Source: Methanopyrus kandleri AV19
GTDB taxonomy: Archaea > JAADCQ01 > Methanopyri > Methanopyrales > Methanopyraceae
Direction of reading: 5' to 3'
NCBI RefSeq assembly: GCF_000007185.1
Contig: NC_003551.1
Location: forward strand, 1,230,001 to 1,262,000
DNA length: 32,000 bases
The notes beneath the pieces are model-generated. The model had not been told where the DNA came from. It worked only from the letters and a program-made list of their open reading frames with translations, and did not search any database. Below, piece after piece: positions 7,010-32,000 of the stretch (position 1 is its first letter; the number at the start of each line of letters is the position of its first letter). The translations under genes and the position numbers were made by a program.

Positions 7010-7165
7010 GGCTCACCGGTCGAGTCGCACAGCCGATGAGCTCCTTCCATACAAGATGGGCCGACCTCACGACGCTCGGGGGCCCGAAAACCGCAACGTC
7101 TTTAAAAATACGTCTTTAAGTAAAGCGACCCATCCGGCGCGGACCCGACGCGTCCGGAGGGGGTC

Positions 7166-12934: not shown

Positions 12935-13182
12935 ATGAACAGCCCCCGTTACTTGGGGGGAGGGGGAGGTCCTTTACTATACAAGTTTCTACTCCGATCT
13001 GGTAAGTGGTCGTTGTACCCGGAAACGTGCGGTCCTCTCCCCACGGTTGTCCTCGGAGCGAAATCCTTCCTCGCTTTCCCTTGAACTTGTTAATTGCACT
13101 GTGTGCACCGTGAGCGTGGGGTTCTACCGGTACCACGCCGTGATATTCGAAGAGAGAAGGCCCGGAGCTGGCGAGGGAAGCT

Positions 13183-13557
13183 TTGTGGAGTAATCCATGG
13201 GGCAGGATCTTCCTGTTAGAAACTCGAGCGGATCCGCCTGTCCAGGGTCGAGCTCGACCGGGGTTCGGTTACTCGGAGGACTACCGGCCGATCGGCCCCG
13301 TCCGGGTGAGCCCGGAGGAGGTGATCGAACGGTACGGGAGCTGGCCCGAATTCATCCGTCGGTACGCGAATGGACTAATCGGCTTGGGAATCGTCTCTGA
13401 CCTCGGTCGGAAGAGGAAGACAGTACGTCATTCGGCGCTTCCCGAGGCTGCGAGTCGCATGGGGGCCTCGGGGAGAGGCGGGGGAGGCTTCAGATGGCCC
13501 GGTGATGGTTCTTCGAAGTATAGCTACAACCCGAACTTTACTCCCTATTTAGTTTAA
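13183..13557 (+). CDS. Questionable small hypothetical protein
   Basis: 124-aa ORF with a TTG start. Only the middle reads protein-like (YRPIGPVRVSPEEVIERYGSWPEFIRRYANGLIGLGIV). The C-terminus is G-rich. Its end overlaps the stop of the AT-rich gene by 4 bp. Confidence 0.3.
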   Translation: MWSNPWGRIFLLETRADPPVQGRARPGFGYSEDYRPIGPVRVSPEEVIERYGSWPEFIRRYANGLIGLGIVSDLGRKRKTVRHSALPEAASRMGASGRGGGGFRWPGDGSSKYSYNPNFTPYLV

Positions 13558-14471: not shown

Positions 14472-14602
14472 GGGCTGAGGTACCGCTCCCGCAACGTTTA
14501 GAAGAGTTACTAAATAAACATTGTGGAGCGAGGTGTTTTTTCTCGGCTGCGCTGGGGATCCAACGACTGGCGCACAACTCCCCGTACAGTCACCACCGGG
14601 GT

Positions 14603-15679
14603 GTGAAGTGCTCGGGGGACGGGGGCGTGCTCCTTCGTCCCGCGGATTCGTGGGCGGGCGTGCTGGTGGATACGGGGAGCACGATCGTCGCCGTGGACGC
14701 GGGCCCCAACCCGTGGCACGCGGAGGACACCGACTACCTCCTTCTCACCCACGCCCACCTCGATCACGTGGCCTCCCTGGACAGGTACTCGAGGAACGGT
14801 GCGAAAGTACTGTGCCCGGGTGACGTGCGCGACGACTTGGGGCTCGTGGACAGCGCGGTGGGCGTGAAGAAGGTGAAGTCGATGCTCTACGACGTGATCG
14901 TCCACCCCATCCCCGTAGAACACACGTGCAGCGCGTACGCCTACGTCCTGGACTTGGAGGAGTGTAACGTCCTGGTCACGGGTGATTGGCACGTGGGACC
15001 GCGCACGATCGATGGTGAGATCAAACCCCTCTGGAAGGCCGTGCGTGAGGTCGTCGGGGGCGAGGGGGTCGACGTGATCGTCTCGGAGGCCACGCGGGCC
15101 CTCGTGGACGCTCCCGAGCTGGGCGGGAACGAGAGGGTTTTCGAGTACGCCCTGTCCCTACACGACCCGCGGGACGTCCTCGCCTTCCTCCAACCCACGG
15201 ACCTCGAGATCATCGACACGGCCTTCCGAGTGGCCTCGGACCTGGGACTCGACGTCGTCGTGGACTCGGAAACCGATCGGAAGCTCAAGTTCTTGGAGAG
15301 GCGTGGGGACGTGGAGTGGGAGTACGACGTGGCCGACGAGCCCCTGGTGCGCTCCCTGTACCTGACCGTGAGCTGGGAGAAGGCGAGGGAGTTGGCCGAG
15401 GCGGGGCTCGTGGAGGCCGTCGTGGGTAACTGGGCGACGGTCCACCATCTGAGGCGTCGAGTCGGAGTGAAGTACGCGTACGTGATCCCCAGGTCCGGGC
15501 ACGCGTCCCGACCCGAGATAACCCGACTGATCACCGAGCTGGAACCCTCGTGCCTCGTGTTCAGACACCGGTCCGGGGACGCCACCCGCCTCGAACGGTA
15601 CTACTCCAGGTTCGTGGACGAGGTGAGGGTGTGGGTGGGGAGAGGGTGCAGGGACGAGTCCCTCGAGCTCCCGCCCTGA
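14603..15679 (+). CDS. Metallo-beta-lactamase fold nuclease, beta-CASP-like
   Basis: MBL motifs are present: VLVDTGS, LLLTHAHLDHVAS (HxHxDH), PVEHTCSAYAY, VLVTGDW. Beta-CASP-like motifs are VIVSEATRA and the C-terminal PRSGHASRPEITRLITELEPSCLVFRHRSGD (SGHA ... H). GTG start. Confidence 0.75.
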   Translation: MKCSGDGGVLLRPADSWAGVLVDTGSTIVAVDAGPNPWHAEDTDYLLLTHAHLDHVASLDRYSRNGAKVLCPGDVRDDLGLVDSAVGVKKVKSMLYDVIVHPIPVEHTCSAYAYVLDLEECNVLVTGDWHVGPRTIDGEIKPLWKAVREVVGGEGVDVIVSEATRALVDAPELGGNERVFEYALSLHDPRDVLAFLQPTDLEIIDTAFRVASDLGLDVVVDSETDRKLKFLERRGDVEWEYDVADEPLVRSLYLTVSWEKARELAEAGLVEAVVGNWATVHHLRRRVGVKYAYVIPRSGHASRPEITRLITELEPSCLVFRHRSGDATRLERYYSRFVDEVRVWVGRGCRDESLELPP

Positions 15680-15680
15680 C

Positions 15681-18527: not shown

Positions 18528-18592
18528 GCGCCCTCCCCTCCGACTCCCTTTTTACGTAGCGTCCAATCCACAACTTACCTCGGGGTTAAGTC
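18528..18592. promoter_or_regulatory. 65-bp divergent promoter region between the methyltransferase and the DUF499 ATPase
   Basis: The two genes start back-to-back (GTG 18527 on the minus strand, TTG 18593 on the plus strand). The spacer contains the only A/T-rich stretch available for TATA function (CCCTTTTTACGTAGC). Confidence 0.5.
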
Positions 18593-20761
18593 TTGAGCGG
18601 CGGGGACCTCCCCTCGGTCTTCGACGTCTTCGAGCCGACGGAGCACGCGATCAACAGGAACAAGAACGTCCTGAGCGTGGAACTATCACACGTGGAACGG
18701 GAGGGTACCCCCGAGTCCGACCCCGAGAAGTTCCTGGCGCTGACCGTCCCGACCGAGGGGCTAGTGAACACCGTCGTGAGCGCGTTGAAACGCGTGGCCG
18801 GACTGGAAGGAGGCGAGCCCGTCCAGTACATGACGGAACGCTACGGCGGCGGCAAAACCCACGTCCTCGTCACCCTCTACCACCTGGCGACGAGCGAGAG
18901 GGCTAGGGAACTCCTCCTGGAGAGGGCCCGAGGTTACGTGGACGAGCGGCGACTGGAGGAGTTGGAGGAAGTCCTGTCGGCCCTCGAGGGGAAGGACGTG
19001 CGGGTCGTCGTGTTGGACGGCGATTCCGTGAGCGAGCCCAGGTGGTGGGTGGAACTGGCCGAACGGGTCGACCCGGAGCTCGCGGAGGAGTGGCGTTCTC
19101 GGGACATGACCCCCTCGAAGGGCGACGTCGAGGAGCTCCTGGATCGCGCGCTGGACGGGGTGGACGGCGTTCTCCTGTTGTTGGACGAGGTGACTGGAAT
19201 GTTGATCCGGTCGGGCGAGGAGATGGACCGTGGTCTCGAGTTCTTGAAGATCCTGGCGAGGGTGGTGGGTAAGGCGGACGCTCCCGTGGCGATGGTGGTC
19301 TCGGCGCCGAAGGGTAGTGGCGAGGTACAGCGGCAGTTGGAACGGTTGAAGGAGGAGGGCGAGGTCGAGTCCGAGGCGGTGTTGCGCGAGGAGGTGCACG
19401 ACGTCGGGGAGGAGGCGGTCGAGCAGCTGGACCGCGTGGGAGAGGAGAGGATCCCCGTGAGCGACGTGGAAGAGGCCGCGGAGATCGCCAAGGTATGGCT
19501 CCTACGCCCGAGGGAGGACGTCGACGTGGAGGAGGCGCGGGAAGCGGTCGTCGAGGCGTACGAGGAGTTGACCTCCGAGCTCGCGGGCACGGAAGGCATC
19601 CCGCGAGACGAAGCGGCGAACGCGGTGAGGCGGTTGCGCGAGACGTACCCGTTCCACCCCAGGCTCTTGGAAGTCCTGAGGAGCGTCACGAGGGAGGAGC
19701 CCTACCAGCTGACGCGTAGCTACCTGGAGATCCTCATGCAGGTCGTCGGGTACGCGTTCGATAGGTGGAAGGAGGGCGAGTGGGAGGCTCCGGTGTTCGA
19801 CCTCGGGGACGTGTTCCTGGACGAGACGGAGGTCGAGGAGGCCGTGGTGAAGCCCGAGGGTTGGGAGGAGCCGGCGGGCGACCTCAGGGAGAAGCTGGAC
19901 GACCTGGTGGAGAAGGAGGGCGAGTTGGCGCGCCGCCTCGCGTACGCCCTGTTCGTGCGCAGTCTCGTCCCGGACTCCAGGAAGAGAGGTGCGACGCCGA
20001 AGGACCTCCTGTTGGACGTGGCCAGGCCCGGGGAGGGCGTGGAACTGTCCGACGTGGAGAGGGCGCTCGAACCCATGGAGGACACGCTCTTCTACCTGCA
20101 CAGGGAGGGGGAGCGGTACTACTTCGACAGGACCATGAACGTCTCTTCCGTGATCCAGTCCTACATGCCGAGGGAGGAGCGGGTCGGTTGGAACCGGGCC
20201 AGGGAGGAACTGGAGAGGGAGCTGAGGAGTATCGGGGGCCTGGGACGGGACGCGCTGGTCCTGTGGGAGGACGAGGAGGAACTGTTGAACAAGCTTCGAG
20301 AACCCAAGCCACGCGTCGTCGTACTACCACCGTGGGAGGGTGAGGAGCGGGCCGAGGAGCTCTGGGAGAAGGCCGAGATGGAGAACGCCCCAGTCTTCCT
20401 GGTCTTCCAGGACAAAGGGCGCGAGAGGCGGCTCCTGAACGCCGCCCTGAGGTTATCGGCCGTCGAGAGGGCGCTGAGGTCCGACGACAAGCTCGCCCGG
20501 GAGCACGGGAAGGAGCTCAGGAGGAAGGAGGAGGAGTACCGGAACAGGGTGCGGAAGCTCCTCCGCGAGGGTTACACGATCCTGCGGTACCCTTCCGAGG
20601 GCGGGTTGGCGAGGGAGATGTTCAGTGTCGAGGAGGGGAGGAGTCTGGGGAGTGCTCTCGGGGAGAAGTTGGAGGAGATCGGGTTCCTCGAGCCGGGTGA
20701 AGAACCCGGGGATGTTCGTGTCGGAGGGGTTGGTGGAGAAGCGCGTGGAGATGATGCCTAA
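18593..20761 (+). CDS. P-loop ATPase of the DUF499 (BrxC/PglY-like) family, N-terminal two thirds
   Basis: 722 aa. DPEKFLALTVPTEGL, then Walker A MTERYGGGKTHVLVTLYHLA, Walker B GVLLLLDEV, and ETYPFHPRLLEVL, which I recognise as typical of DUF499-type ATPases. Divergent from the methyltransferase. Confidence 0.8.
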   Translation: MSGGDLPSVFDVFEPTEHAINRNKNVLSVELSHVEREGTPESDPEKFLALTVPTEGLVNTVVSALKRVAGLEGGEPVQYMTERYGGGKTHVLVTLYHLATSERARELLLERARGYVDERRLEELEEVLSALEGKDVRVVVLDGDSVSEPRWWVELAERVDPELAEEWRSRDMTPSKGDVEELLDRALDGVDGVLLLLDEVTGMLIRSGEEMDRGLEFLKILARVVGKADAPVAMVVSAPKGSGEVQRQLERLKEEGEVESEAVLREEVHDVGEEAVEQLDRVGEERIPVSDVEEAAEIAKVWLLRPREDVDVEEAREAVVEAYEELTSELAGTEGIPRDEAANAVRRLRETYPFHPRLLEVLRSVTREEPYQLTRSYLEILMQVVGYAFDRWKEGEWEAPVFDLGDVFLDETEVEEAVVKPEGWEEPAGDLREKLDDLVEKEGELARRLAYALFVRSLVPDSRKRGATPKDLLLDVARPGEGVELSDVERALEPMEDTLFYLHREGERYYFDRTMNVSSVIQSYMPREERVGWNRAREELERELRSIGGLGRDALVLWEDEEELLNKLREPKPRVVVLPPWEGEERAEELWEKAEMENAPVFLVFQDKGRERRLLNAALRLSAVERALRSDDKLAREHGKELRRKEEEYRNRVRKLLREGYTILRYPSEGGLAREMFSVEEGRSLGSALGEKLEEIGFLEPGEEPGDVRVGGVGGEARGDDA

Positions 20762-22061
20762 GGAGGTCCTGAAGAACGCGTACTCCAAGCCCGGGTGCCC
20801 GTGGTGTCGGGAAGAGGACGTGATCGCGATGATCGTCAAGGGGTGCGAGGAGGGCTTCTTCGTGGTGGACACGGGTAAGGCACGGTTCTTCCTGAGGCGA
20901 CCGAAGGGCGTGGACTCCAAGGCGAGGTTCGGGCATCCGACGGTACTGCACCCTCCGGTGGGATGGACGGCGGACTTCATGGGGGCTGACGAGACCGTCA
21001 AGGACTTCCTGGACGACGTGATGAAAAGGTTGGAGGAACCGAGGAACACGAACTGGAGCGAGGAGGAGAGGTGGCTCTCGGACGACGAACTGCTCGAGTT
21101 GGTGAGAGAGGACCTCCCTCAGGGGTTGGATAGGGCCGGGTTGGTGCTCCGGCATCAGGACGAGGGAGGGATCGTCGGGCCCGGGGATCTGGAGGAGGAC
21201 AAGGATCTCCTGGAGGCCGTCCTGGAGGAGCCGAACGCTTGGGTCTTCGAGGAGTTGAAGGTGACGAGGCTGGTGTCGGACGAGGTGCGTCGGGAGGGTA
21301 GTATCGCGAGGAGGGAACTGGTCCGGCGGTTGTCGCAGAGGTTCGGGCTGGAGGAGAGTCGGGTGAACGGTGCCATCAGCCGGTTGGTGCAAGACGGTGA
21401 GTTGGAGGAGGACGGTGGGATCGTGAGCGTGCCGTCCGAGGCGGAGGTGACTGTGGACGACGTCGTGGGCGTTGTGGAGAAGAAGGGTGAGGCCACGCTG
21501 GACGTGCTCGCGAGCAGGCTCGGGGTTAACCCGGCGTTCGTGGAGCCCGCGGTCGTGGAGGGTGTGAAACGCGGTCGCCTGGTCGTGTACCGCGGTGATC
21601 GACCGTTACGGGACCTGGAGTCGGTGAGTGAGGGTGTGCGGGTCGGACTGCCGGAGGAGCGGGTCGAGGTCGGGTACGCGGGAGATCCGGTGGATTTCGC
21701 GAGGGAGGTCGCGGACGCGGTGTTGATCGTGGGAGGGCGTGCTCGGGTGCAGCTCGAACTGGAGAGTGTGAAGGGCCTGGACTACGTCGATACCGAGTAC
21801 CTGGCCAGGTTTGAGGAGGTCCGGGTGAGGATCGAGGTGGAGGGTGGCGTGCTGGAAGGTGAGAAGAAGGGGGTCAGTCCGCGGAACGACGGGTGGTGGA
21901 TCGCGGTCAGGCTGGCCGCGGGCCAAGCGAGCGGCGCGGAACTCCACCTCACCGGCCGATTCGACCGGGACTCACTGACCGACTTCGAAGAATCCGTCAG
22001 AGAGCTCGCGGATGCCCTGGACCCTGAAGAAGCGCATGCCGTAGTGGAGAAGGTCGATTGA
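20712..22061 (+). CDS. C-terminal module of the DUF499 ATPase as a separate or overlapping ORF (wHTH-like repeats); start ambiguous
   Basis: In-frame ATGs lie at 20712 (MFVSEGLVEK), 20751 and 20754 (MMPKEVLKN), all overlapping the end of the upstream ORF (stop 20759-20761). The translation is protein-like with two wHTH-looking segments (IARRELVRRLSQRFGLEESRVNGAISRLVQDGELEE; ATLDVLASRLGVNPAFVEPAVVEGVKRGRLVVY). Confidence 0.7.
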   Translation: MFVSEGLVEKRVEMMPKEVLKNAYSKPGCPWCREEDVIAMIVKGCEEGFFVVDTGKARFFLRRPKGVDSKARFGHPTVLHPPVGWTADFMGADETVKDFLDDVMKRLEEPRNTNWSEEERWLSDDELLELVREDLPQGLDRAGLVLRHQDEGGIVGPGDLEEDKDLLEAVLEEPNAWVFEELKVTRLVSDEVRREGSIARRELVRRLSQRFGLEESRVNGAISRLVQDGELEEDGGIVSVPSEAEVTVDDVVGVVEKKGEATLDVLASRLGVNPAFVEPAVVEGVKRGRLVVYRGDRPLRDLESVSEGVRVGLPEERVEVGYAGDPVDFAREVADAVLIVGGRARVQLELESVKGLDYVDTEYLARFEEVRVRIEVEGGVLEGEKKGVSPRNDGWWIAVRLAAGQASGAELHLTGRFDRDSLTDFEESVRELADALDPEEAHAVVEKVD

Positions 22062-22504
22062 GACGGTGAGCGAGGACTACGGGTCGGAACTACCATCCTC
22101 TTCGTCACCATCTCTACTTATCCTGAAGCTTACGGATTCCCTGACCGATTAATCCAAGTGCTAGACCTTCTAGTTAACCACTCTCAAGCCTTTATTCATA
22201 AGTATAAGTATATGAACTATCTCTGTCATTTTGATTCAAGTCAGAACAAGCGGTAATAGAGTTATCTTCCCCACATTCACTTCAGTTTTCTCACCTAAGT
22301 TCAACATCTTCATGTAGGTGATCAATATCTCCTTAACTGTTACAACTTCGCCATTTAGGGTTAACATAAAGCTTCTTTCGTACCTACTTAGCCAACATTA
22401 TTTCTTAGAAATAGGCAGAATATGGAAGGTTCAAAATATAACAGTTTCATACCATTAATCTTTATATATGACACATATGATACTCTTAGATGGGGTGAAT
22501 ATCC

Positions 22505-22828
22505 ATGTTCATTCTCGAATTTGGGGTTGAATATAGCTTAGGATCACCGACTATTCGATATGTATGCAGAGTCTACTACTCACCAACATTCAGCATCCAA
22601 CCTACATTCCAATTCGCGACAGAGTACTTTAGTAATACTTCGTTACTGCACCTTTTACTGACTATAGAAACTATCTCAAAACTTAGCAGTATCGAAAGTA
22701 AACTATACCACATCGAAAGTAAACTAAGCTTCCGGAATACTTTACTACAGAATGTAATCTCGAACTGGCTTTCACCGATACTGCCACCAATTCCCGAAGT
22801 GATCAAGATACTACTAGGTAGTTGGTGA
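22505..22828 (+). CDS. Questionable 107-aa hydrophobic ORF inside the AT-rich spacer
   Basis: A 107-codon open frame in ~30-35% G+C DNA is unlikely by chance. However, the antisense frame (22576-22854) is also open, and the ORF contains the 15-bp direct repeats (IESKL x2). No RBS or family recognised. Confidence 0.3.
   Translation: MFILEFGVEYSLGSPTIRYVCRVYYSPTFSIQPTFQFATEYFSNTSLLHLLLTIETISKLSSIESKLYHIESKLSFRNTLLQNVISNWLSPILPPIPEVIKILLGSW
22691..22726. repeat. Two perfect 15-bp direct repeats, 21-bp period
   Basis: ATCGAAAGTAAACTA occurs at 22691-22705 and again at 22712-22726. Confidence 0.9.
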
Positions 22829-23094
22829 TCACACGGTGTCAAACTTCCATCCACTACCGTCTTTTATGAGTCCAGGGACGTAGTCCCACCCGGACTAGTT
22901 TTTCACTCACTTCCCTCTTTCTCCTCACCTCACGGTCCGATATCTCAGGTGCTAGCGGTAGGGAGTGGAGAAATTGAACATCAGCTTCCGGCCCATGTTG
23001 GGCAGTTCCGGCTGTAAGATTTCCGTCCGATTAGTACGTAGAACACGTTCGAATACGTTCCACTTAGGATAGACACAACGCCCTCAATGGATGG

Positions 23095-23589
23095 GTGGAG
23101 TTTGGCATCAAGGTAACTACGCCGCCCGTCCCACCCCCGGAGTCCGACGGGAGGGCCGAGACCCTCGAGGAGGGTAACTGGTCGTACGAGACGCGCACGT
23201 ACTACGTCCGCCTCCGGGACGACCGACTGGGAACCGAGGTGGGGAAGGGCTCCGCCGAGTACGCCGTGCACGCGCTCACCCACGCCCTCAGGGTCACCGA
23301 GGGTTACCCGCCCGCCCACGTCCGGCACGCCGTCGACGAGGAATCGATCTTCCTCTACGAGCTACCGGCGGCTGTCCTCCCCCACCTGGACTGGGAGTCC
23401 GCGGTCCGGGAGGCCGAGCGCACGCGCCTGGAGCCCGAGCGGCTCCGGCTCCCGACCTGTCCGTGGCCGAGGGGCTCACCGAGGGTCTCCCGACCCCTCG
23501 TCCGCCGCTACCTTCGGCGGTTGCTAGACCTCCTAAAGCGACTCTCCCTGCACGTGCATGGCGCGGTTACCGAACCCTCAAAGCACTAA
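23095..23589 (+). CDS. Hypothetical protein
   Basis: 164-aa ORF, GTG start. Protein-like N-terminal two thirds (NWSYETRTYYVRLRDDRLGTEVGKGSAEYAVHALTHALRVTEGYPPAHVRHAVDEESIFLYELP). The tail is basic. It is the first GC-rich gene after the AT-rich spacer. Confidence 0.5.
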   Translation: MEFGIKVTTPPVPPPESDGRAETLEEGNWSYETRTYYVRLRDDRLGTEVGKGSAEYAVHALTHALRVTEGYPPAHVRHAVDEESIFLYELPAAVLPHLDWESAVREAERTRLEPERLRLPTCPWPRGSPRVSRPLVRRYLRRLLDLLKRLSLHVHGAVTEPSKH

Positions 23590-23701
23590 CAGCCAACACA
23601 ACAGACCTAAGCTATTGCTAAACCACCAAACTATCCCACTAAGTTGCGCCCGTGTGATAATTCATCAGATTTGACAACCTAAAGGAAATTCTCGAAATTT
23701 C

Positions 23702-23731
23702 TAGCAACCCTACCGAAAGTTGCTAATATAT
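23702..23731 (+). promoter_or_regulatory. Palindromic operator overlapping the BRE/TATA of the wHTH gene
   Basis: Perfect inverted repeat TAGCAAC (23702-23708) / GTTGCTA (23719-23725) with a 10-nt spacer. The right arm runs into TAATATAT (23724-23731), about 30 nt before ATG 23762. Related half-sites are ATTGCTAAA (23614-23622) and AAGTTGCGCC (23641-23650). Confidence 0.55.
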
Positions 23732-23761
23732 CTCCCTCCTTTAGTAGGAAGAGGGCTGAGA

Positions 23762-24154
23762 ATGCTCGAGGAACGCGAGCTTGAGGAGCTTGCTAAAGCT
23801 CTGAAACGGGGAGAACTGGACAAAACCGGCGCCGTGCTCGGCTTGCTCTATCTAGCGTACGTTGAGACAGGCGGACATGGAGGCATGACAGCTGACGATG
23901 TAGTACGAGTTTTACAGGAATCAGGATACGACATAACTAAAGAGAGATTCTACTCGCTCGCCTCCCAGTTGATGAAGAAAGGCTACATAGAATCTCACAA
24001 AATCAATGGACGTAGGGTTATCTACACGATCAACAGCGACAGTGAGTACGAGGTGGAACAGAAACTACGCGAGAGACTCGAGAAATCCGCCCCGACGGCT
24101 GAGCGTGTAAGCGCAGAGGAGATGCGGAGAATACTGGATAGGCACTCGACTTGA
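23762..24154 (+). CDS. Small winged-helix DNA-binding protein (PadR/MarR-like fold)
   Basis: 130 aa from ATG 23762; the track start TTG 23720 lies inside the TATA box and is unlikely. MTADDVVRVLQESGYDITKERFYSLASQLMKKGYIESHKINGRRVIYTI gives a helix-turn-helix plus beta-wing pattern. Confidence 0.7.
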   Translation: MLEERELEELAKALKRGELDKTGAVLGLLYLAYVETGGHGGMTADDVVRVLQESGYDITKERFYSLASQLMKKGYIESHKINGRRVIYTINSDSEYEVEQKLRERLEKSAPTAERVSAEEMRRILDRHST

Positions 24155-24243
24155 GGGAAAGCGCGGCCCCGTGTGGGACGGTGGTTTAATTTTCTCGGCC
24201 CTCATGGTACCAATTAGGAGAAGTTGTTGGGGATTGTCTTGTT

Positions 24244-25155
24244 TTGGCTAAGGTCAGTAAGGTGTTCGTGGTCGGGTTCACGGCCAGGAAGGGAGGTACC
24301 GGGAAGACGACCTGCTCGTTCAACGTAGGGTTCGAGTTCGCCAGGAGGAGGAAGTGGAAGGGTGTGAAGAGCCATCCGGTGTTCTTCGTGGACGTCGATC
24401 CGCAGGCGATCGGTAAGGAGTCGGAGCGGGCGGCCACTACGCTTACCGACCTCTTCAGGATCGGGCCTTTCGACCTAACACCCCTCAAACTAGAGGGCGA
24501 CAGGATGGTCGAGGCCAGACGCGTCACGAAGGAGACCGTCGAGAGGACCGGTGGTTTCGAGTTGTTCCACGTGAAATACTCGCCGGATCCCGAGGAGTTC
24601 GACAATGCAGATCCTATGTGCTCGGTTCACGATAAGGTGTTCCTAGCTCACCTCAGCACGCACATCTCGGAGTCGCCGGGTATGATGGATTTCGGGAAGT
24701 TCCTGAACGCCATCACGGGGGCCGGGTTCGACGGTATCGTCGTCCTCGACACCCCTCCGCTGAACGTCAGGACGACCTTCGTCCTCAACGCGCTGGAACA
24801 CTGTGATTTAGTGGTTCCAGTCCTGAACCCGGAGTCCTACGATCAGATCCCCGACTTCATCAGGCGACACCCTGTGCGGTTCATCGTGCTCAACCAGATG
24901 CTGAAGGGTAGGACGAAGGAGGCGGAGAAGATCCGCAGGGAGATCGAGGGTTACCTCAAGAGGACGACGTTGGACGAGGACGACGTCATCTGGATCCCTA
25001 GCAACGACCAGCTCCGCTCGTGCACGAACACCGGGGTTCCGGCTAGGTGTAGGAACCCCAAGCCCCAGGCCGTCACGCCCAAGTTCCATCACATAGCCTG
25101 GAGGATTGAAGTGGAGCGGGAGCGGCGGAGCAAGATCAGCGAGATCAGGCTCTGA
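24244..25155 (+). CDS. ParA/MinD/Soj-family P-loop ATPase
   Basis: Deviant Walker A FTARKGGTGKTTCSF, DVDPQ, Walker B GIVVLDTPP. TTG 24244 or GTG 24262 is the start. Confidence 0.9.
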   Translation: MAKVSKVFVVGFTARKGGTGKTTCSFNVGFEFARRRKWKGVKSHPVFFVDVDPQAIGKESERAATTLTDLFRIGPFDLTPLKLEGDRMVEARRVTKETVERTGGFELFHVKYSPDPEEFDNADPMCSVHDKVFLAHLSTHISESPGMMDFGKFLNAITGAGFDGIVVLDTPPLNVRTTFVLNALEHCDLVVPVLNPESYDQIPDFIRRHPVRFIVLNQMLKGRTKEAEKIRREIEGYLKRTTLDEDDVIWIPSNDQLRSCTNTGVPARCRNPKPQAVTPKFHHIAWRIEVERERRSKISEIRL

Positions 25156-25169
25156 GCGGGGGAGCGCCG

Positions 25170-25841
25170 GTGTTCGAGCTGGCCGTCAAGGCCTTCGGTC
25201 TCCCGGATTCGACCGTGACCCACGCCAAGCGCGGCCTCCAGATCATGGACGACCGGGCTTCGAGGGGCCGGAAGCCGGTCACGAGGGGCGACTACGGTAA
25301 GGTGACGAGGGGGGTCGCCAGGCTCGTCAGGCACGCCCACACGACGCTGGTGGTACCGGGTCTCGACGTCGTCACGAAGTGGGCTAAGCGCTACGGGAAA
25401 AGGCCCTGGAAGATCGTCCGTAACGTCCTCGAGGACGGTGGCGGGCTCCTCGACGAGACCCCCCTGAGGTTCGAGGACCTGCCGCCGGGCGCCGCCCCGA
25501 TCGCGGCCGTGGTCAGGACGGGGAACGCCCGGAAGGTCGTCGAGGAGGCGTTCCTGACGGAATACCCGCTGTTCGCGGCGATGATGTGCGCGGTGCTCGA
25601 GGACGCGGCTCGGACAATGCTCGAGCGGTTCTCGGAGGAGGAGGTCGAGACTTACGGGGAGTTCTGTCGGAAGCACCCGGGGAGGCACGGTTCCAGCTTC
25701 CTGATCGGGGTAGCCCTCTGGGGCTGGCTCGAGGAGAGGACGGGGGAGACTATCGACGTCGACGAGACCCTCAGGAGCATCGAGAAACTCGCCAGGGACC
25801 CGGTGGAGGAGGCCGTGAACGGGATCCTAGACGTCGGCTGA
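25170..25841 (+). CDS. Hypothetical protein downstream of ParA (candidate partition adaptor)
   Basis: 223-aa ORF. GTG start 14 nt after the ParA stop, preceded by GGGGGAG. The translation is protein-like (VVTKWAKRYGKRPWKIVRNVLEDGGGLLDETPLRFEDL; FLIGVALWGWLEERTGETIDVDETLRSIEKLARDPVEEAV). No family recognised. Confidence 0.65.
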   Translation: MFELAVKAFGLPDSTVTHAKRGLQIMDDRASRGRKPVTRGDYGKVTRGVARLVRHAHTTLVVPGLDVVTKWAKRYGKRPWKIVRNVLEDGGGLLDETPLRFEDLPPGAAPIAAVVRTGNARKVVEEAFLTEYPLFAAMMCAVLEDAARTMLERFSEEEVETYGEFCRKHPGRHGSSFLIGVALWGWLEERTGETIDVDETLRSIEKLARDPVEEAVNGILDVG

Positions 25842-25897
25842 TACCCGCCGAGGCAGTGACTAGAGGATCTCTCGGAGAGTTTAACGGACTGGGGGCG

Positions 25898-27057
25898 GTG
25901 CCGGTGGATGCTGAGCACTGGGAAGTCCCGATTGTGCCGAAACCCGAGTTCCGGGAGGCACTGCAACGGTACATGATCTCCCGACTCGAGGAGGTCGGCG
26001 TTGGCCCCAAAACCGTCGAACAAATTGTAAACCTTAATATCGAGAAGGTGGAGCCATGGAATGACATCAAATCAAAGATAACTTATGAAATCCAATATAA
26101 TTTGAAGCATTGCTGTTGCATGGTAGAGGACTTAAAAAAAGATTTGAAACGTATCTACGGAGAGTTGAGGCTTGAGGACCTCTGCTCGTTCGGTGACGCT
26201 GCCCTGTGGTTACTCGGCGTCCGTAGAGCGGTGGTCGAGTTCATCCACGACCTCCTTCTCGAGCGACCGGACCTCACTAAGGCTGTTGACCTCTGGTTGG
26301 TCGGAAGGATGCTCGATGCGGGCGAACTCAAGGCGGCTACGGAGCTCCTGGAACTGAACGGGTACGAGGTTCCTCCGTCCCCAACTCGAGTACCAGAGCT
26401 AAAAACTACCGAAAGAGTCCATAGGCTGGGTCACGTAATGACTGAAACGATACTCACGGCCCACGCGCTCTCGAACAGGGTCGATAGCAGCTCCTTCGAC
26501 GAAGCCGTTGGAAAGGTCAGGAACTGGTTCAAGGAGGCCCAGTCATCGCTGAGGAATGAAGTTCAGAAGGAGGATAGCTCGGAGCTAGTGGTGAAATTTA
26601 TCGAAGGGTTGCGCGACACGCTGGAGGATCTTATCAGAAAGACGTTAGAGCACGGTAAACCCGAGCTTGAGGAGGTCAACTCTACTTTCGAGCTGTTGGG
26701 TATCGACGATCTAGGTTCGTTTTTCAGCCGGGCGTGTGGTGAGTTCAAACGGGCGGTGGATTACCTCGTCGAGGTGGTCGAGTTCGACCCCGGACGAATG
26801 GCGAAGAACTTACTCCGAGCGAGTCCGGAGATAGAACTCGGGGATCGGACGCTGGAACCGGAAGTGTACGATCCGAGGTGGAGCATCTTCGAGCGAGACC
26901 TGAGCGAGCTCGACAGGATTACGAAGGAGATGATCGAAGAGCTGGTCACCGAGACCGATCGGTCTTCCTCCGAGCGCGAAGCCCCCCCGACCCACTGTCC
27001 GAGGTCGTGGACTCCGTCGTCAAGGAGGCGCTTGACAAACGCCGAGGGAACTCTTGA
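25898..27057 (+). pseudogene. Paralog 1 of the novel triplicated family, frameshifted at a C7 run
   Basis: Homologous to 28311-29615 and 29840-31165. Matching segments: VPIVPKPEFREALQRYMISRLEEVGV vs VPLSPTEEFYDRVKSYVERRMSDLGL; VDLWLVGRMLDAG vs VNLWIAGAALASQ; ILTAHALSNRV vs CLTAHAMVNRG; EIELGDRTLEPEVYDP vs EIRLGDKIIPPEEYDP. After the C7 run at 26982-26988 the running frame becomes P/S/R-rich junk. The frame reached by adding one C reads DPLSEVVDSVVKEALDKRRGNS* (stop 27055-27057), matching the family C-terminus. Start GTG 25898 or 25904. Confidence 0.65.
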
Positions 27058-27182
27058 ACCCAGTCCTACCCCCTATCGCTCGATGACTCCTAGGATCTCT
27101 CCCAGCGATCCTGTCGGAAAAAGGTCCCCGCTAGAACCGCGCCCGAACTCCCCGACGGCCGCGCATGCCTTAGTGGGTACCC

Positions 27183-28277
27183 TTGATACTGTTCTCGTTC
27201 CGACGACTTTACGCCCGGGATCGCGACCGAGCGCCACGTCTCACGGGGCGGTGGGCGTTGAGGGTACTCCCGGCCGACGAGCTGGAGGAGTGGCTGTCGG
27301 AACGACTGGAAAGCTTCGTGGGCGAGGTCGGCGAGTACTCGATCGTGCTCGCGTGCGCGTTCTCCAGGCGCGTGGGGAGCGGGTTGCCCGCGAGCGACCT
27401 CGTGACGGCCATCCGGGAGCTAGACCCCGGCCCGTGCCGGGTCATGCTGCTGTGGGGCGCCGGTACCACCGAGGTGGCGGACCCGCTGGAGGCCGTGCGG
27501 GCCGCGGAGGACCTGCGCGGTTGCGGCGATGAGGCCTGGATCGGCGTGCACCCGACGCGACCCTTCCACGGTAAGTTCCTCCGCGTGCTCCCGGAGGGTG
27601 AGGGCCCGGAGCTCTCGATCGCCTTCAGCTGGAACCTCTCGCGGACGGCGGCGGACGCGGGTTCACTCGAGAGCGTGCTCGAGCGAAGGGAGGAGCGCGG
27701 TGAAACGTTCGAAGAGTTCGTGGGCAGGCTACGCGAGGACGGCTGGCTCGTGGGCCGGTTACGCCGTGAGGGTGGGAAGTCCCGCGTCGTCCTCGAGGAC
27801 GTGCGGAAGTTCAGGTTCCCCTGCTCGGGCCCCCGGGAGGTGCGGGTGCGTGGACGGGTGGGCGTGCTCTCGGGAACGGTGAGCGTCACGGAGCTGGTCC
27901 TGGACGACGGGTCGCGGGAGGTGACGTTGGTCCTGGATAGGGGGCTCCGCGAGTCCTTCGAGGACGTCGAGTCGGTGGTGACGGAGGTCGTAGAGGGGGA
28001 GTTCCGGCGGGTCGTGCAGGACGGGGAACTGGAGAGCGACGTGGTGCGGTACGGGATCGTCCGCGCGGTGCGGGACGTCGTGGAGGAACTCGTCGAGCGG
28101 GGTGAGGCGGAGTACGAGGTCGCCGTGCGGGCGGAGGAGACGGTGAACGGCGACGAGGCGGGTGTGCTCGCGGACGAGTGGAGGTTCCCGAACGCGAAGG
28201 CGGCCCTACGCTCGCTCGTCCGGGAGATCCTCCGGACACGGTTGCGCGAGGTGTTGGAGGAGTTAGTTGAAAGTTAA
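27183..28277 (+). CDS. PLD/HKD-like nuclease-fold protein with acidic C-terminal extension
   Basis: 364-aa ORF. The start is uncertain (TTG 27183, or the TTG giving MRVLPADELEEWL). It has alternating beta-strand pattern (YSIVLACAF, RVMLLWG) and an HKD-like motif, VHPTRPFHGKFLRVLPEGEGPELSIAFSWNLSRTA (H-x-K ... S-x-N with an insertion). The antisense 226-aa ORF is S/R/P junk. Confidence 0.6.
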   Translation: MILFSFRRLYARDRDRAPRLTGRWALRVLPADELEEWLSERLESFVGEVGEYSIVLACAFSRRVGSGLPASDLVTAIRELDPGPCRVMLLWGAGTTEVADPLEAVRAAEDLRGCGDEAWIGVHPTRPFHGKFLRVLPEGEGPELSIAFSWNLSRTAADAGSLESVLERREERGETFEEFVGRLREDGWLVGRLRREGGKSRVVLEDVRKFRFPCSGPREVRVRGRVGVLSGTVSVTELVLDDGSREVTLVLDRGLRESFEDVESVVTEVVEGEFRRVVQDGELESDVVRYGIVRAVRDVVEELVERGEAEYEVAVRAEETVNGDEAGVLADEWRFPNAKAALRSLVREILRTRLREVLEELVES

Positions 28278-28421
28278 TTTAGGACAGATGTTATCTCATC
28301 AGGAGGTTCCGTGTCGCCAGGGGGCGTTCCAGTGCCCGAGCGCGTCCCATTGAGCCCGACCGAAGAGTTCTATGACAGGGTGAAATCGTACGTGGAACGC
28401 CGAATGTCGGACCTCGGCTTA
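28273..28421 (+). repeat. Duplicated leader plus 5' coding block of paralog 2 (copy 1 of 2)
   Basis: 149 bp collinear and ungapped with 29781-29929: GTTAATTTAG...CAGGAGGTTCCGT...CAGGGGGCGTTCCAGTGCC.GAG.GCGTCCC..TGAGCCCGACCGA...ATGTCGGACCTCGGCTTA. It includes a TATA-like TTAATTTA and AGGAGGT. Confidence 0.85.
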
Positions 28422-29615
28422 GAACCTCCGGAGGATAATGAGAGTCTTCTCTACGATGAGAAGTATGGTCATTTCTGGACGTTCAACGGATTTGGTCGAG
28501 AATTGTGGAGTGATTTAAGTGCAGTATGGATATTAATCGTATTACCTTCGAATGGTCTTCTTTCAGAAAACATATTCGAACTTGAGGAACAACCGTCGAC
28601 GGGTAAGGTATTAAGGGACGAAGTAGAAAGAGTTGGAAGGGGATTGCTAGAGCGGGAGTCTAAGCGTCATTTTAGTGATTACTTTTTGGGAGAACTAGAA
28701 GTCTTCAAGGAAGCCTCACAGCATGTCAAACGCTTCGTACTAGATGAGCCGAACTTTGAGGTTGCGGTTAACCTCTGGATCGCCGGAGCTGCTCTTGCGT
28801 CTCAAGATGGTACCCCAAGAATCGCCATCCAGGCTATCAGTTCGATAGACACCGAAGTTTCTGAGTTTCCAGTTGGGGTTCCTTCGTACCCTCTTGGTTA
28901 TATCCTCCAAGGTTGTGGCATAACGGCTTCCGTACTCTGCCTGACTGCTCACGCGATGGTTAACCGTGGAGTAGAAGAAGATCAGTTACTTGAATATCTA
29001 AGTGATACGCCCTATGGTGAGAAAGTTCGGATTATATGCGCATCATGGGTTGAGGGAACGTACAAAGAGGTGATTAAAGAATGCCTAGAAGGTTTGAAAG
29101 ATGGACTTAATAGATTACTGAGGAAAGGACGAGGTTTAAACATGAGGGATCTAGGGATAGACGACCCTGAGGAGTTCGCTCATGAAGTTTTGAGAAAACT
29201 TGCTGATGTAATAGCTAACATCTCCGCCGTCTTCGAAACTGTTCACAGAGAACCTGAGAGGATCGTTCATACCCTTCTCTCGGTCGATGAAGAGATACGA
29301 CTCGGAGATAAGATCATCCCACCTGAGGAATATGATCCAAATGGAACAAATATGTATCGGTTGGAGAAGACCTTCGAGAGTATCGATGCTGAGAAATTTG
29401 TAGAAGATGCTATGAAAACAGTCGGTAAGCTCGTAGGCGGGTCAAAGGGTGAAGATGTAGCCGAAACCGCGACCAAACTGGCGACAGAAGCGGTAAAACA
29501 GGGGTTGAACATAATATCCGAGTCGGGTGGGGATCGTAAGGGGAGGAGCACACTAGGGGAGCTCATCGAATCCGTCGTTAAGGAGGTCATGGGTGACGAC
29601 CGGAAGAGAAAGTAA
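28311..29615 (+). CDS. Paralog 2 of the novel triplicated family (434 aa)
   Basis: Long ORF through AT-rich DNA. GTG 28311 is the first start; GTG 28332 (MPERVPLSPTEEFYD) corresponds to the paralog 3 start. The C-terminus GGSKGEDVAETATKLATEAVKQGLNIISESGGDRKGRSTLGELIESVVKEVMGDDRKRK is conserved in paralog 3. No known family recognised. Confidence 0.85.
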   Translation: MSPGGVPVPERVPLSPTEEFYDRVKSYVERRMSDLGLEPPEDNESLLYDEKYGHFWTFNGFGRELWSDLSAVWILIVLPSNGLLSENIFELEEQPSTGKVLRDEVERVGRGLLERESKRHFSDYFLGELEVFKEASQHVKRFVLDEPNFEVAVNLWIAGAALASQDGTPRIAIQAISSIDTEVSEFPVGVPSYPLGYILQGCGITASVLCLTAHAMVNRGVEEDQLLEYLSDTPYGEKVRIICASWVEGTYKEVIKECLEGLKDGLNRLLRKGRGLNMRDLGIDDPEEFAHEVLRKLADVIANISAVFETVHREPERIVHTLLSVDEEIRLGDKIIPPEEYDPNGTNMYRLEKTFESIDAEKFVEDAMKTVGKLVGGSKGEDVAETATKLATEAVKQGLNIISESGGDRKGRSTLGELIESVVKEVMGDDRKRK

Positions 29616-29780
29616 GTGGTCATTCTTTGCCTTCTCAATGATTAAGTGTCCTCGTACCGTTCTCTACCGATCGCCGATACTCCGAAATCCCTACTCTACC
29701 GTCAGGAAAGCCCTCCGAACGGACGTTCCATCGACTAAAAGGAGTATCTCAACTGTGTGAAGCACTGTAAGGTTGGTTAA

Positions 29781-29929
29781 GTTAATTTAGAGCGGACGTT
29801 GTCTCACCAGGAGGTTCCGTACCGTCAGGGGGCGTTCCAGTGCCTGAGTGCGTCCCGCTGAGCCCGACCGATAGGTTCTACGACAAGGTGAAATCCTACG
29901 TGAGACACCGGATGTCGGACCTCGGCTTA
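29781..29929 (+). repeat. Duplicated leader plus 5' coding block of paralog 3 (copy 2 of 2)
   Basis: See 28273-28421. Same length and block order, offset 1508 bp. Confidence 0.85.
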
Positions 29930-31165
29930 AGGATTGGAGATGCCGCTCTTTACGATACAAAGTACGGTCCCCTTTCACCACTTCCCATTTTCATGGATGG
30001 ATGGTGGCGTGGATCATGGATTCGAGAGCGTAGATTATGGGATGGAAAGCTGGACAAGCCATGGCTATTAACCGTGTCAGTCCTAGCCGAACTTTTCGAT
30101 TCTAATCCTGAAGAAATTGCTGGCATTCCCTCAATTGAAATTGAACCAGGAGCATCAAAATTGGGATATATGCTAAGGAAAATGATAAAGACTGGAGAGG
30201 AGTCGTTAAAAGAGAAACGGGAGTATGGACACCTAAGCGACTATATTCTGTGGGCACTGGAAGTAATTGAGGTGATCACTCGAAGAATCAGGGATCTCGT
30301 ACTGGACAAGCCAAGCCTTGAGACCGCCCTGAACTTTTGGGTCATTGGAGCTGTTCTTAGCTCTCGAAACGTTTCAAAAGTTACTGTCATTAGCGATTCA
30401 GTGGATCTTGAAATACCGAAGTCTTCTGTCGAGATTCCGTTACCTTATGGCATTAACATTCAAGGTAGTAGCTCAATAACTTCCACGCTCTATGTAATTG
30501 CTCACGCGATGGTACATCGTGGGATAGATGAAGACCAGCTGTTAGAACACTTTAATATACAAACAGTGTGCGCGTTATGGATCGAGGAGAATATGCATAA
30601 AAAGATGATTAAGAAAGGACTAGAGGAATTAAAACACGGTTTTGAAAAGTTACTAAAGAAGTCGAAGTGGGAGCTGGAACTCGAAGACTTAGGGATCGAT
30701 GACCCCGAAGCGTTCTTCCACGAAGTCTCGAAAAAACTCGCCGAGATTGTGACCAACGTTTCAACCGCTTTTGAAACTATTCAAGATAAGCCCGAAGAGA
30801 TCGCCCGGAACCTGCTCTCGGTCGACGAGGAGATCCGACTCGGGGACGAGGTCATCCCGCCCGAAGAGTACGATCCCAAGTGGAGACAATCACAACGCGT
30901 GAAACAACACGTAAAAGGCACTCTGGAAAGCATCGACACCGAGAAACTCGCGGAAGATGCGTTGAAGACGGTAGGAAGGCTCGTAGGCGGGTCGAAGGGC
31001 GAGGAGATGGCCGAGACCGCGGCCAAGCTGGCGACGGAGGTAGTAAAACGAGGGTTGGACATGGTGTCCGAGTCAAGTGGGAATCGTAAGGAGAGGAGTG
31101 TGCTAGGGGAACTCATCGAGGCGGTCGTCAAGGAGGTCATGGACGGCGCTCGGAAGAGGAAGTAG
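29840..31165 (+). CDS. Paralog 3 of the novel triplicated family (441 aa)
   Basis: GTG 29840 is the first start after the in-frame stop at 29783-29785. MPECVPLSPTDRFYDKVKSYVRHRMSDLGL; LNFWVIGAVLSS; YVIAHAMVHRGIDEDQLLEHF; LLSVDEEIRLGDEVIPPEEYDP; C-terminus GGSKGEEMAETAAKLATEVVKRGLDMVSESSGNRKERSVLGELIEAVVKEVMDGARKRK. Confidence 0.85.
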   Translation: MPECVPLSPTDRFYDKVKSYVRHRMSDLGLRIGDAALYDTKYGPLSPLPIFMDGWWRGSWIRERRLWDGKLDKPWLLTVSVLAELFDSNPEEIAGIPSIEIEPGASKLGYMLRKMIKTGEESLKEKREYGHLSDYILWALEVIEVITRRIRDLVLDKPSLETALNFWVIGAVLSSRNVSKVTVISDSVDLEIPKSSVEIPLPYGINIQGSSSITSTLYVIAHAMVHRGIDEDQLLEHFNIQTVCALWIEENMHKKMIKKGLEELKHGFEKLLKKSKWELELEDLGIDDPEAFFHEVSKKLAEIVTNVSTAFETIQDKPEEIARNLLSVDEEIRLGDEVIPPEEYDPKWRQSQRVKQHVKGTLESIDTEKLAEDALKTVGRLVGGSKGEEMAETAAKLATEVVKRGLDMVSESSGNRKERSVLGELIEAVVKEVMDGARKRK

Positions 31166-31322
31166 GTGAAGTCGCCCTTACATTCCTCGATAATCCCTAT
31201 ATCACCGCAACTCCCGACCGTTGGGTCCGGCGGATTATCTGGCGCTCAGCGTCCAGCAACAACAGCACTGCCCTCGGCGTCGTAGGGTGAGGAGGCTCCG
31301 CACGTTTCCGCAGACCCGACTG

Positions 31323-31349
31323 GAATCGTTAATATTTCTGTAACGATTC
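31323..31349. repeat. Perfect 9-bp inverted repeat (hairpin) in an AT-rich patch
   Basis: GAATCGTTA (31323-31331), atatttctg, TAACGATTC (31341-31349). Confidence 0.85.
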
Positions 31350-31535
31350 TGAGTTGAGCTGCTGGAGAACCCCTCCGAACCCGTGATATTCCACACTAAG
31401 ATAGCGAGCTCATACTACTAATGGTTTTCGGGAACCACCGACCGCCGAAACCCCGGGGATCCCGACTTTACCCCGGAGAAAGCCGATCGGACGGGCGCTT
31501 CGTAGGGTAGGAAACCCTAAAGTTTCCGTAATAAC

Positions 31536-32000
31536 TCAACCGGTATCGTCACGACGCCACCGGACCGCGCGCCGTCCGATCGGTACGGGGATCGCCGGCA
31601 GAACGTGTCGCGACCCACGCCCCGACGACCCCTCGGACTCCCCGGTCTCCCCGCGTGTCCCCTCGACCTCGGAACCACTCGACCCGCCCGCGGGGAACTC
31701 CTCCAGCGTCCACTCCCCGAAACCGGGGTACTCCCGACGCACCGGCTTCAGCAGGTGACGGACACCGTCCCGGTCCTCGACGATCAGCCCCTCCGACGTC
31801 GGGTCACCGAGCGGTACTCCCGGGACTCCCGCACGGAACGCCCGTCGGAGAGGACCACGACGAACCCGTCGTCGAACCGGAAGACGGCCACGAACCAACC
31901 GTCCGACAGGTCCCGGCGGTACACCGGCTCCCCCGATCGCTCGGACGGGAGGACGTACGCGCGGCCGGTCCCCGGGTCGAGGACGACCGACCCCGCGACG
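31536..32000 (-). pseudogene. 3' end of a paralog of the 1137-aa secreted protein, frameshifted; continues beyond the window
   Basis: One minus-strand frame, open from the window edge, reads ...GEPVYRRDLSDGWFVAVFRFDDGFVVVLSDGRSVRESREYRSVTRRRRG* (stop 31784-31786). A second frame continues with DPTSEGLIVEDRDGVRHLLKPVRREYPGFGEWTLEEF...LPAIPVPIGRRAVRWRRDDTG* (stop at 31536). Joined, they parallel the end of 7166-10579: LRRLDGGWFLAVFDIDGEYLVVLSDGKKVVDRRLYDSVEPRPDGTLVARTPAGEEVVLRVERTGDGWTLTEG...RRIPVPVPPVPVRRRRSA. A single-nt indel near 31800-31815 separates the frames. Confidence 0.7.

Follow-up and report, generated by a model that had tools for sequence, protein, structure and literature searches.

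Two tandem paralogs of a Methanopyrus-restricted protein family are probable recombination mosaics with conserved GC-rich ends and divergent AT-rich bodies

We analyzed a 32,000-nucleotide (nt) stretch of the Methanopyrus kandleri AV19 genome (NCBI RefSeq assembly GCF_000007185.1, contig NC_003551.1, positions 1,230,001 to 1,262,000 of the forward strand; hereafter the window, with positions counted from its first letter), in which three paralogous genes of an uncharacterized protein family, labeled P1, P2, and P3, lie on the + strand. P1 (25904-27054) is the most divergent copy; it is GC-richer and is frameshifted at a run of seven C residues (C7, 26981-26987). A GC-rich gene for a 339-amino-acid (aa) protein (27258-28277, +; G+C content at third codon positions, GC3, ~0.88), here called the partner gene, follows P1 and is syntenic with family members in other Methanopyrus assemblies. 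P2 (28332-29615, +) and P3 (29840-31165, +) encode intact proteins of 427 and 441 aa, respectively. Both appear in the list of open reading frames (ORFs); P2, which has a family-profile score of 451 bits, is also a gene-caller product in assembly L001, and a protein identical to P3 is present on eight contigs. The sequence from 25538 to 32000 was reproduced with zero differences in independent short-read assemblies. The reading that we favor, and consider reasonably probable, is that P2 and P3 are recombination mosaics, with two processes (selection and terminal recombination) behind their conserved ends and with bodies that are old AT-rich cassettes.

A repeat search revealed that P2 and P3 share ungapped direct repeats at both ends. 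At the 5′ ends, 151 nt (28271-28421 and 29779-29929, both +) are 85% identical and comprise ~60 nt of leader and codons 1–30 of each gene; the first copy contains a TATA-like element (TTAATTTA), a GGAGGT motif, and the P2 start codon, and the second is supported by synonymous divergence and the GC3 change-point as well as by the repeat search. A preliminary description of this DNA had reported an ungapped leader and N-terminal block of 149 bp; the block was recovered, with its length revised to 151 nt. At the 3′ ends, 243 nt covering the last 80 codons of each gene (29376-29618 and 30926-31168, both +) are 77% identical. In a protein-guided codon alignment, aa identity between P2 and P3 was highest in the first 30 residues (80%), fell to 27-40% through most of the core, and rose again to 62-78% in the final ~110-120 residues, in agreement with the conserved C-terminal block of ~110 aa described earlier.

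The 5′ block also holds an alternative P2 start, a GTG at 28311, 21 nt 5′ of the annotated start. This GTG, four bases past the GGAGGT motif (28302-28307), is common to P2 and to the family allele of another M. kandleri assembly (L009), and the corresponding P3 codon at 29819 is GTA. From these sequences, P2 and P3 may differ in the start codon used or in translation efficiency.

The bodies between the conserved blocks are AT-rich, and their limits were determined with a change-point test in which the best internal low-GC3 segment was compared with 200 permutations for P2, P3, the partner gene, and P1. In P2, the low-GC3 segment spans codons 30-389 (28419-29498, +), with GC3 of 0.41 inside and 0.75 outside; in P3, it spans codons 30-272 (29927-30655, +), with GC3 of 0.40 inside and 0.73 outside. 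None of the 200 permutations equaled either segment (p<0.005). The same test gave p = 0.35 for the partner gene and p = 0.11 for an AT-rich patch of P1 (~26018-26152; GC3 0.42, against a P1 GC3 of 0.67). The 5′ boundary is codon 30 in both P2 and P3, the last codon of the 151-nt repeat, and the P3 body includes a hypervariable loop region (residues ~31-105). Neither GC3 nor divergence is uniform along the genes, and the compositional boundaries coincide with the conserved blocks. The GC-rich ends described earlier are therefore real, although they are not symmetrical: the GC-rich 3′ end measures ~38 codons in P2 and ~170 codons in P3. Over the whole gene, GC3 is 0.46 in P2 and 0.55 in P3, and the GC content of both is 0.47-0.49, compared with 0.69 for the partner gene (GC3 0.88) and 0.615 for the window. 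GC3 follows conservation in P3 (rho = 0.70, p<0.001), with no correlation in P2 (rho = 0.18), and the N-terminal block and C-terminal tail lie above the gene average in GC3 in the AT-rich members P2 and P0011.

These values agree with the strongly diverged, AT-rich cores of the preliminary description, whose G+C counts (21/60 in 28501-28560 and 43/60 in 28021-28080) were exact on recount. It had also pointed to one peptide, LSVDEEIRLGD(K/E)(I/V)IPPEEYDP, encoded by different codons in the two paralogs, and this too holds: 9/22 third positions are G or C in P2, where the LSVDEEIRLGD..PPEEYDP motif lies within the AT-rich body and uses A/T-ending codons, and 19/22 are G or C in P3.

Sliding Nei-Gojobori estimates on the codon alignment, made for P2 against P3 and for both against the L009 allele, showed that synonymous divergence (dS) is heterogeneous along the genes. 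Between P2 and P3, synonymous sites are saturated over most of the gene, with a proportion of synonymous differences (pS) of >=0.75, the conserved C-terminal motif included; in the block holding the peptide above, pS is 0.76-0.96 and the corresponding nonsynonymous proportion (pN) 0.12-0.28. Because its synonymous sites are saturated, the comparison indicates that this peptide is held by purifying selection on an old divergence and is not a conversion tract; the same peptide would be written in different codons because the DNA of P2 and P3 diverged anciently under such selection. Conversely, dS is 0.36 in codons 1-30 (pS 0.29 in the 5′ block) and ~0.55 in the last ~55 codons. Identical residues use the same codon at 44/62 positions in the ends and 63/141 in the middle (Fisher p = 7e-4, for regions picked post hoc). 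A GENECONV-type single-segment permutation test gave p<0.004 for P3 and L009, p ~0.05 for P2 and L009, and p ~0.36 for P2 and P3. The aligned sequences thus make it plausible, with only moderate support, that P2 and P3 have undergone conversion at their extreme ends, because the regions were chosen post hoc and the single-segment test was not significant. Of the earlier proposal that the ends had been converted, the lower dS at both extreme ends speaks for it, while its extension to the conserved C-terminal motif fails on the pS values. The dN/dS ratio is below 1 in nearly every window (0.1-0.95), reaching 0.8-0.95 in columns 166-210, and exceeds 1 solely between P2 and L009 in columns 91-120, a gapped, poorly aligned stretch.

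The clearest recombination signal, judged from the alignments, is between strains and not between P2 and P3. L009 (GCA_053992195.1), another M. kandleri assembly, carries one family gene at the P2/P3 position (L009 421-1695). Its upstream part, in which the leader follows the tail end of the partner gene, shows 88% identity to the upstream sequence and first codons of P2 (28164-28420) and 75% identity to the P3 equivalent, and its core is of a third type that matches neither P2 nor P3 at the DNA level. Identity between P3 and L009 is 28-72% over 29927-30754 and 95-98% over the GC-rich 3′ tract of P3 (30815-31054, +); identity and composition switch together at ~30755-30815, where the LLSVDEEIRLGD motif begins. 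At informative sites, L009 is P2-like at 37/41 upstream and predominantly P3-like (~69%) afterward, with a breakpoint at ~nt +9; the maximum chi-square of this three-sequence breakpoint, 56.5, was reached by 0/1000 permutations. A few P2-like sites return in the last ~100 nt of the gene. The dS between P3 and L009 is 0.05-0.24 in columns 331-405 and >=1 upstream, and the same codon is used at 101/114 identical residues (permutation p<0.004). Past the gene, the flank 31339-31936 matches L009 at 93-100% identity, except for one 72% window (31698-31757). Thus, the cross-strain comparison that had been suggested as a check for core shuffling yielded an allele that combines the upstream sequence and leader of P2 with a core of a third type and a 3′ end like that of P3. 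By these sequence comparisons, the L009 allele shows recombination at the conserved ends, with crossovers falling in the terminal blocks.

The L009 family gene is interrupted by an in-frame TAG where P3 has a Glu codon, leaving ORFs of 234 and 179 aa; as GAG is one substitution away, a nonsense mutation appears to be the simplest explanation and was preferred to pyrrolysine or selenocysteine read-through. Only ~50-60 nt of the 3′ end of the partner gene remain upstream of the L009 gene, and a ~250-nt sequence related to 31325-31574 of the window is found both upstream (L009 1-253) and downstream of it. Just past the P3 stop codon, 31175-31338 is 40-60% identical to L009 with gaps and is bordered on both sides by sequence of 83-100% identity, forming a second small variable segment.

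On the evidence of sequence searches, the family is restricted to Methanopyrus, uncharacterized, and undescribed. An exhaustive profile search of 1.84 billion representative proteins returned 13 clusters only; all that were traced belong to vent metagenomes or to Methanopyrus-type assemblies, and those bearing a name are annotated ‘hypothetical protein [Methanopyrus kandleri]’. The family proteins had no match in Pfam, NCBIfam, PADLOC, or PHROG, none was found in JGI metagenome or viral contigs in scans with the patterns used, and none was found by tblastn in phage and plasmid records. Scans of genome contigs with a protein pattern and a leader DNA pattern were also negative, in a collection from which the source genome is probably masked or absent. 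Family-wide motifs are an N-terminal VP..P..(E)F...Y...R(L/M).(E/D).G, AHA..R, LGIDD, LLS...I.LGD...PE.YDP.W, and a basic C-terminal tail. AlphaFold2 models reached a predicted local distance difference test (pLDDT) score of 63 with 3 sequences and 71 with 12 sequences, the latter being all-helical with a predicted template modeling (pTM) score of 0.68; low pLDDT (<50) is seen at P3 residues 47-72 and 88-105, in the most variable, indel-rich part. Foldseek searches against PDB and BFVD gave no significant match (best E 0.03 or worse, TM-score ~0.2 or lower), and a sequence profile matched one designed helical bundle only in PDB. The transporter matches that topped the Foldseek list were rejected as all-helix noise, and no hydrophobic segment had a transmembrane-like score. 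The P2 and P3 products are acidic, and solubility and an all-alpha fold are predicted for them. We also considered and rejected P2 and P3 as targets of a diversity-generating retroelement: the repeat search shows only the two paralog blocks, no template/variable repeat pair was found in 25000-32000, and no reverse-transcriptase match occurred among the ORFs scanned.

Comparison within the family bears on the direction of compositional change. GC3 of the block holding the quoted peptide is 0.38 in P2, the lowest of 9 family members, and 0.54-0.88 in the other 8; because P2 is the outlier, its A/T-ending codons are probably the derived state, and the G/C-ending codons of P3 would not be an ameliorated one. 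With P2 as the outgroup, GC-to-AT changes exceed AT-to-GC changes on the P3 branch (75 vs 42 overall, 25 vs 5 in columns 226-330), and the L009 branch shows 38 GC-to-AT vs 68 AT-to-GC changes. The lysine fraction, K/(K+R), is high in P2 and P3 (0.47-0.60) compared with the partner gene (0.09) and the GC-rich family members (0.13-0.29); this shift at the protein level points to long-standing AT pressure. The GC-rich members P0006, P0008, P0010, and P0012 have GC3 values of 0.78-0.94, and P0012 sits among housekeeping genes (PheRS, translin, RsmB). In a further cluster, in L014 (GCA_054039895.1, 251-7835), 3-4 family copies stand in tandem behind a partner-gene homologue, and at least 2 of the copies are frameshifted. 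These copies are ~25% identical to P2 and P3 at the aa level, with a GC content of 0.36-0.48 in their cores and 0.54-0.58 at the gene junctions against a background of 0.62-0.72.

The partner gene recurs with the family. Its homologues (74% and 69% aa identity, or the tail only) directly precede family members in L014, L011, L015, L018, and L009. It had been called a PLD (phospholipase D) gene, a label that we could not uphold. No match was found in Pfam (E<=0.1), NCBIfam, or PADLOC, a 3-sequence profile found no PLD structure in PDB at E<=1, and the resemblance of HGKFLRV...SWNLS to HxK...SxN is by eye only, with Leu at the Asp position of the motif. Downstream of the family members in L011, L014, and L015 lie genes for a small protein with weak PD-(D/E)xK-like matches, an uncharacterized protein of 407-466 aa, and a DEAD-box helicase whose best matches in defense databases are BrxHI, SngC, and DpdF.

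For the cause of the AT-richness of P2 and P3, we infer the following course of events. Family-wide purifying selection would keep the protein motifs over anciently diverged DNA, while recombination or gene conversion would act on the terminal blocks, namely the 151-nt 5′ block (leader and first 30 codons) and, at the 3′ end, the final 40-170 codons. This would keep the terminal blocks similar, GC-rich, and host-like, and would make them crossover points at which divergent bodies could be swapped, fused, or deleted between copies and strains. The bodies would then be old allelic cassettes under long AT pressure, not a foreign gene ameliorating in place. This pressure probably comes from AT-biased mutation acting, without GC-restoring recombination, on bodies too divergent to recombine, from time spent in a mobile gene pool that is unsampled and richer in AT, or from both. 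By recombining with GC-rich copies or flanks, the ends would stay host-like, possibly with help from GC-biased conversion. A GC-to-AT mutation bias is general in bacteria (PMC2936529), in which recombination is linked with higher GC (PMC4450053).

Several points weigh against this reading. For P2 and P3 themselves, the best single high-identity synonymous segment was not significant, the difference between ends and middle was tested on regions selected after viewing the data, and the 85% identity of the leader could reflect constraint on a probable promoter and ribosome-binding region instead of conversion. In the comparison with L009, the baseline divergence from AV19 comes from only ~600 bp of flank, and the highly similar 3′ tract shared with P3 could itself be a recent transfer. 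The parsimony polarization is crude, with an AT-rich outgroup (P2) and saturated sites, and is taken as supportive only; no AT-rich donor pool, viral or plasmid, was found in the searches of viral, phage, and plasmid records; and the function proposed below is drawn wholly from gene neighborhood.

The preliminary description had offered different stages of amelioration of a foreign gene, in which an AT-rich gene entered and was duplicated and the copies are drifting toward the host GC of 61%, P2 least and P3 partly. This corresponds to the Lawrence-Ochman model, which describes the amelioration of horizontally acquired genes. The setting is similar, with AT-rich genes in a variable island of a GC-rich genome: P2 and P3, with their low GC and GC3 (0.46-0.55), adjoin the partner gene with its GC3 of 0.88, further genes of the island, such as 13554-14471, are clearly AT-rich, and the L009 branch has an excess of AT-to-GC changes. 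Amelioration is nevertheless very unlikely to explain these genes. No donor was found, as the searches gave no homologue beyond Methanopyrus or in the viral, plasmid, and phage sets; the family appears native to the genus and includes members of host composition (GC3 0.90), one of them among housekeeping genes; and the inferred change in P2 and P3 is toward AT, both in the motif codons of P2 and in the net GC-to-AT change on the P3 branch. The AT-rich cores of the distantly related L014 cluster suggest a long-lived and not a transient pattern, and whereas the model expects gradual, gene-wide change, the boundaries are abrupt and fall at repeat edges. A history without recombination, in which selection on protein, promoter, and translation start keeps the ends while the cores evolve neutrally to saturation and drift toward AT, is also improbable. 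It accounts for the conservation of the same blocks across the whole family and for the non-significant permutation test between P2 and P3; weak constraint is in addition suggested by the pseudogenized copies (the P1 frameshift, the L009 TAG, the L014 frameshifts) and by the dN/dS values of 0.8-0.95 in columns 166-210. It does not account for the incongruence of L009, P2-like upstream and P3-like in the body (p<0.001), or for the jump from ~65% to 95-98% identity within one gene of two M. kandleri assemblies, and selection on the protein leaves the lower synonymous divergence and higher GC3 of the ends unexplained.

Two other explanations share recombination with the reading that we favor. GC-biased gene conversion may directly cause the GC-rich ends, with the bodies decaying to an AT mutational equilibrium; this would refine the mosaic interpretation, and we regard it as possible though doubtful. 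Low dS and high GC3 coincide at the P2 and P3 ends and in the tract shared by P3 and L009, P3 shows the correlation of GC3 with conservation, the terminal blocks of P2 and P0011 exceed their gene averages, and the general phenomenon has been described in bacteria (PMC4450053). Against this, the evidence is correlational, P2 lacks the correlation, host-like flanks retained after import of a cassette predict the same pattern, and the cited support for such a bias comes from bacteria, whereas Methanopyrus is an archaeon. Diversifying selection, under which the variable core would be an arms-race recognition module for the nuclease-like protein or the helicases, with cassettes swapped at the ends, seems unlikely. 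The constant-variable-constant layout, the hypervariable residues ~31-105 modeled at low confidence, the tandem copies, and the allele replacement within the species would all fit it, as would a neighborhood with the partner gene, a weak PD-(D/E)xK match, a BrxHI/DpdF-like helicase, and nearby type III-A cas, DUF1156, and DUF499 genes. Conversely, dN/dS is below 1 in nearly all windows, no homology to a known specificity subunit or defense protein was found, and one member lies among housekeeping genes without such partners. That the P2 and P3 cores determine specificity is thus a hypothesis.

As to any function of P2 and P3, a working guess from the neighborhood is that they evolve fast and serve the adjacent nuclease-like gene and the helicase module as an accessory, a sensor, or a partner of immunity type; a fast-turnover accessory protein is favored because of the tandem copies, frequent pseudogenes, allelic replacement, and defense-island setting. 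A bolder proposal, to which we attach a low probability, is that the family is the exchanging recognition or immunity part of an undescribed Methanopyrus-specific defense or conflict module. The composition of this putative module is equally speculative: the nuclease-like partner, the small PD-(D/E)xK-like protein, the 407-466-aa protein, and the DEAD-box helicase, often beside type III-A CRISPR-Cas. If this were true, the GC-rich ends would be recombination handles for swapping whole AT-rich specificity cassettes among tandem copies and among strains living at ~100 degrees C.

A mosaic with compositional heterogeneity in a variable island is of a known and fairly ordinary kind; it is the family itself that is undescribed. 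The nearest parallel in composition is with the Rhs/polymorphic-toxin loci of enterobacteria, where a conserved, GC-rich core carries variable, AT-rich tips at the C-terminus and displaced ‘orphan’ cassettes occur. In both cases, a single family is a sharp compositional mosaic of constant parts that are host-like or GC-rich and variable parts that are AT-rich, and both have tandem partial or complete copies, recombination at constant sequence, and frequent decayed copies. The present family differs in lacking YD repeats, a toxin domain, and a small immunity gene, in its archaeal host, and in having both ends constant and the middle variable, whereas only the C-terminal tip varies in Rhs; there is no similarity in sequence or fold. 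HsdS, the specificity subunit of type I restriction-modification systems, shares with the family, as do similar specificity genes that shuffle cassettes, the constant-variable-constant layout, crossovers in conserved regions that reassort variable ones, and a defense-island location beside nuclease and helicase genes. Unlike HsdS, the family has no Methylase_S or other Pfam match, no internal duplication of a target-recognition domain, a predicted helical-bundle fold, and no linked invertase or recombinase; homology to a specificity-subunit family was found in none of Pfam, NCBIfam, PADLOC, PHROG, or PDB sequences or folds. Concerted evolution and gene conversion between tandem paralogs, together with GC-biased gene conversion in prokaryotes (PMC4450053), resemble the present case in terminal tracts of lower dS and higher GC3 in directly repeated neighbors, but the signal between P2 and P3 is modest, as dS is 0.36-0.55 and not near zero and the single-segment test is non-significant.

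The findings imply that a gene can be AT-rich in a GC-rich genome without being an ameliorating import; in the present case, a family native to the genus would have gained AT-rich bodies and kept host-like ends that recombine. Methanopyrus is a hyperthermophile thought to have little gene flow, and within-species allelic replacement and tandem-copy turnover are documented here for this genus. The pattern could also provide a modest natural experiment on a GC-raising effect of recombination in archaea, and an unannotated, genus-restricted family with a conserved neighborhood is a reasonable place to seek archaeal defense functions.

The P1 frameshift was traced in a three-frame translation, in which the family C-terminal tail (DPLSEVVDSVVKEALDKRRGNS*) continues in another frame after the C run. 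A sequencing error was rejected as its cause, as C7 is also present in assemblies L001 and L002, which are independent of each other. In the noisy assembly L008, a C8 run gives an intact 384-aa protein (P0003); the L008 sequencing run has further one-base indels in short base runs, and its C8 is likely sequencing noise. The C7 frameshift could mark a pseudogene or a phase-variable tract.

Upstream of the paralogs, a DUF1678 gene (PF07913, E = 4e-105; 6233-7009, -) has a homologue in L013 that directly precedes a P1-like gene; because the two adjoin there, ~7,000-25,900 of the window (~19 kb) appears to be extra, inserted material relative to L013. On these gene contents, the P1-P3 region is strain-variable and resembles a defense island. 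A DUF1156 methylase-like gene (15681-18527, -) is divergent from a DUF499 gene (18593-22061), and the two look like a defense-type pair. In the window, the DUF499 reading frame is broken into two ORFs that overlap (18593-20761 and 20625-22061). Assembly L001, which lacks one C at 20693, has a single DUF499 product of at least 1155 aa, and the split is either an error in the reference sequence or a real frameshift polymorphism. Closer to the paralogs are a winged-helix gene (23720-24154) and a ParA-like ATPase gene (24244-25155). An AT-rich ORF of 305 aa (13554-14471, -), with surroundings of ~36% GC in a 62-70% GC background and a K/(K+R) of 0.77, had no Pfam match and a weak PHROG exonuclease match (E = 0.006), and looks like a recently acquired foreign gene. 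An Rfam search of the window returned nothing.

Between the DUF499 gene and a helicase remnant, ~22100-23000 is AT-rich (~42% GC) without a convincing ORF and may be a junction or remnant of an inserted element. In L019, a DEAD-box helicase of 669 aa is encoded upstream of a family member; its C-terminal ~100 residues share 42% identity with positions 23182-23469 of the window, within ORF 23095-23589. By this similarity, the ORF is apparently a decayed remnant of the helicase accompanying the family elsewhere. After the tandem copies of L014 come a small minus-strand gene, whose homologue in L011 is the PD-(D/E)xK-like gene, and then the 407-aa gene. The P1-like members P0006 and P0010 adjoin type III-A CRISPR-Cas genes (Cas10, Csm2, RAMPs) in L013 (3157-11113) and L019 (3149-15038), and in L019 the family member overlaps its upstream gene by 4 nt in a gene series with DEAD and ResIII helicases among its members.

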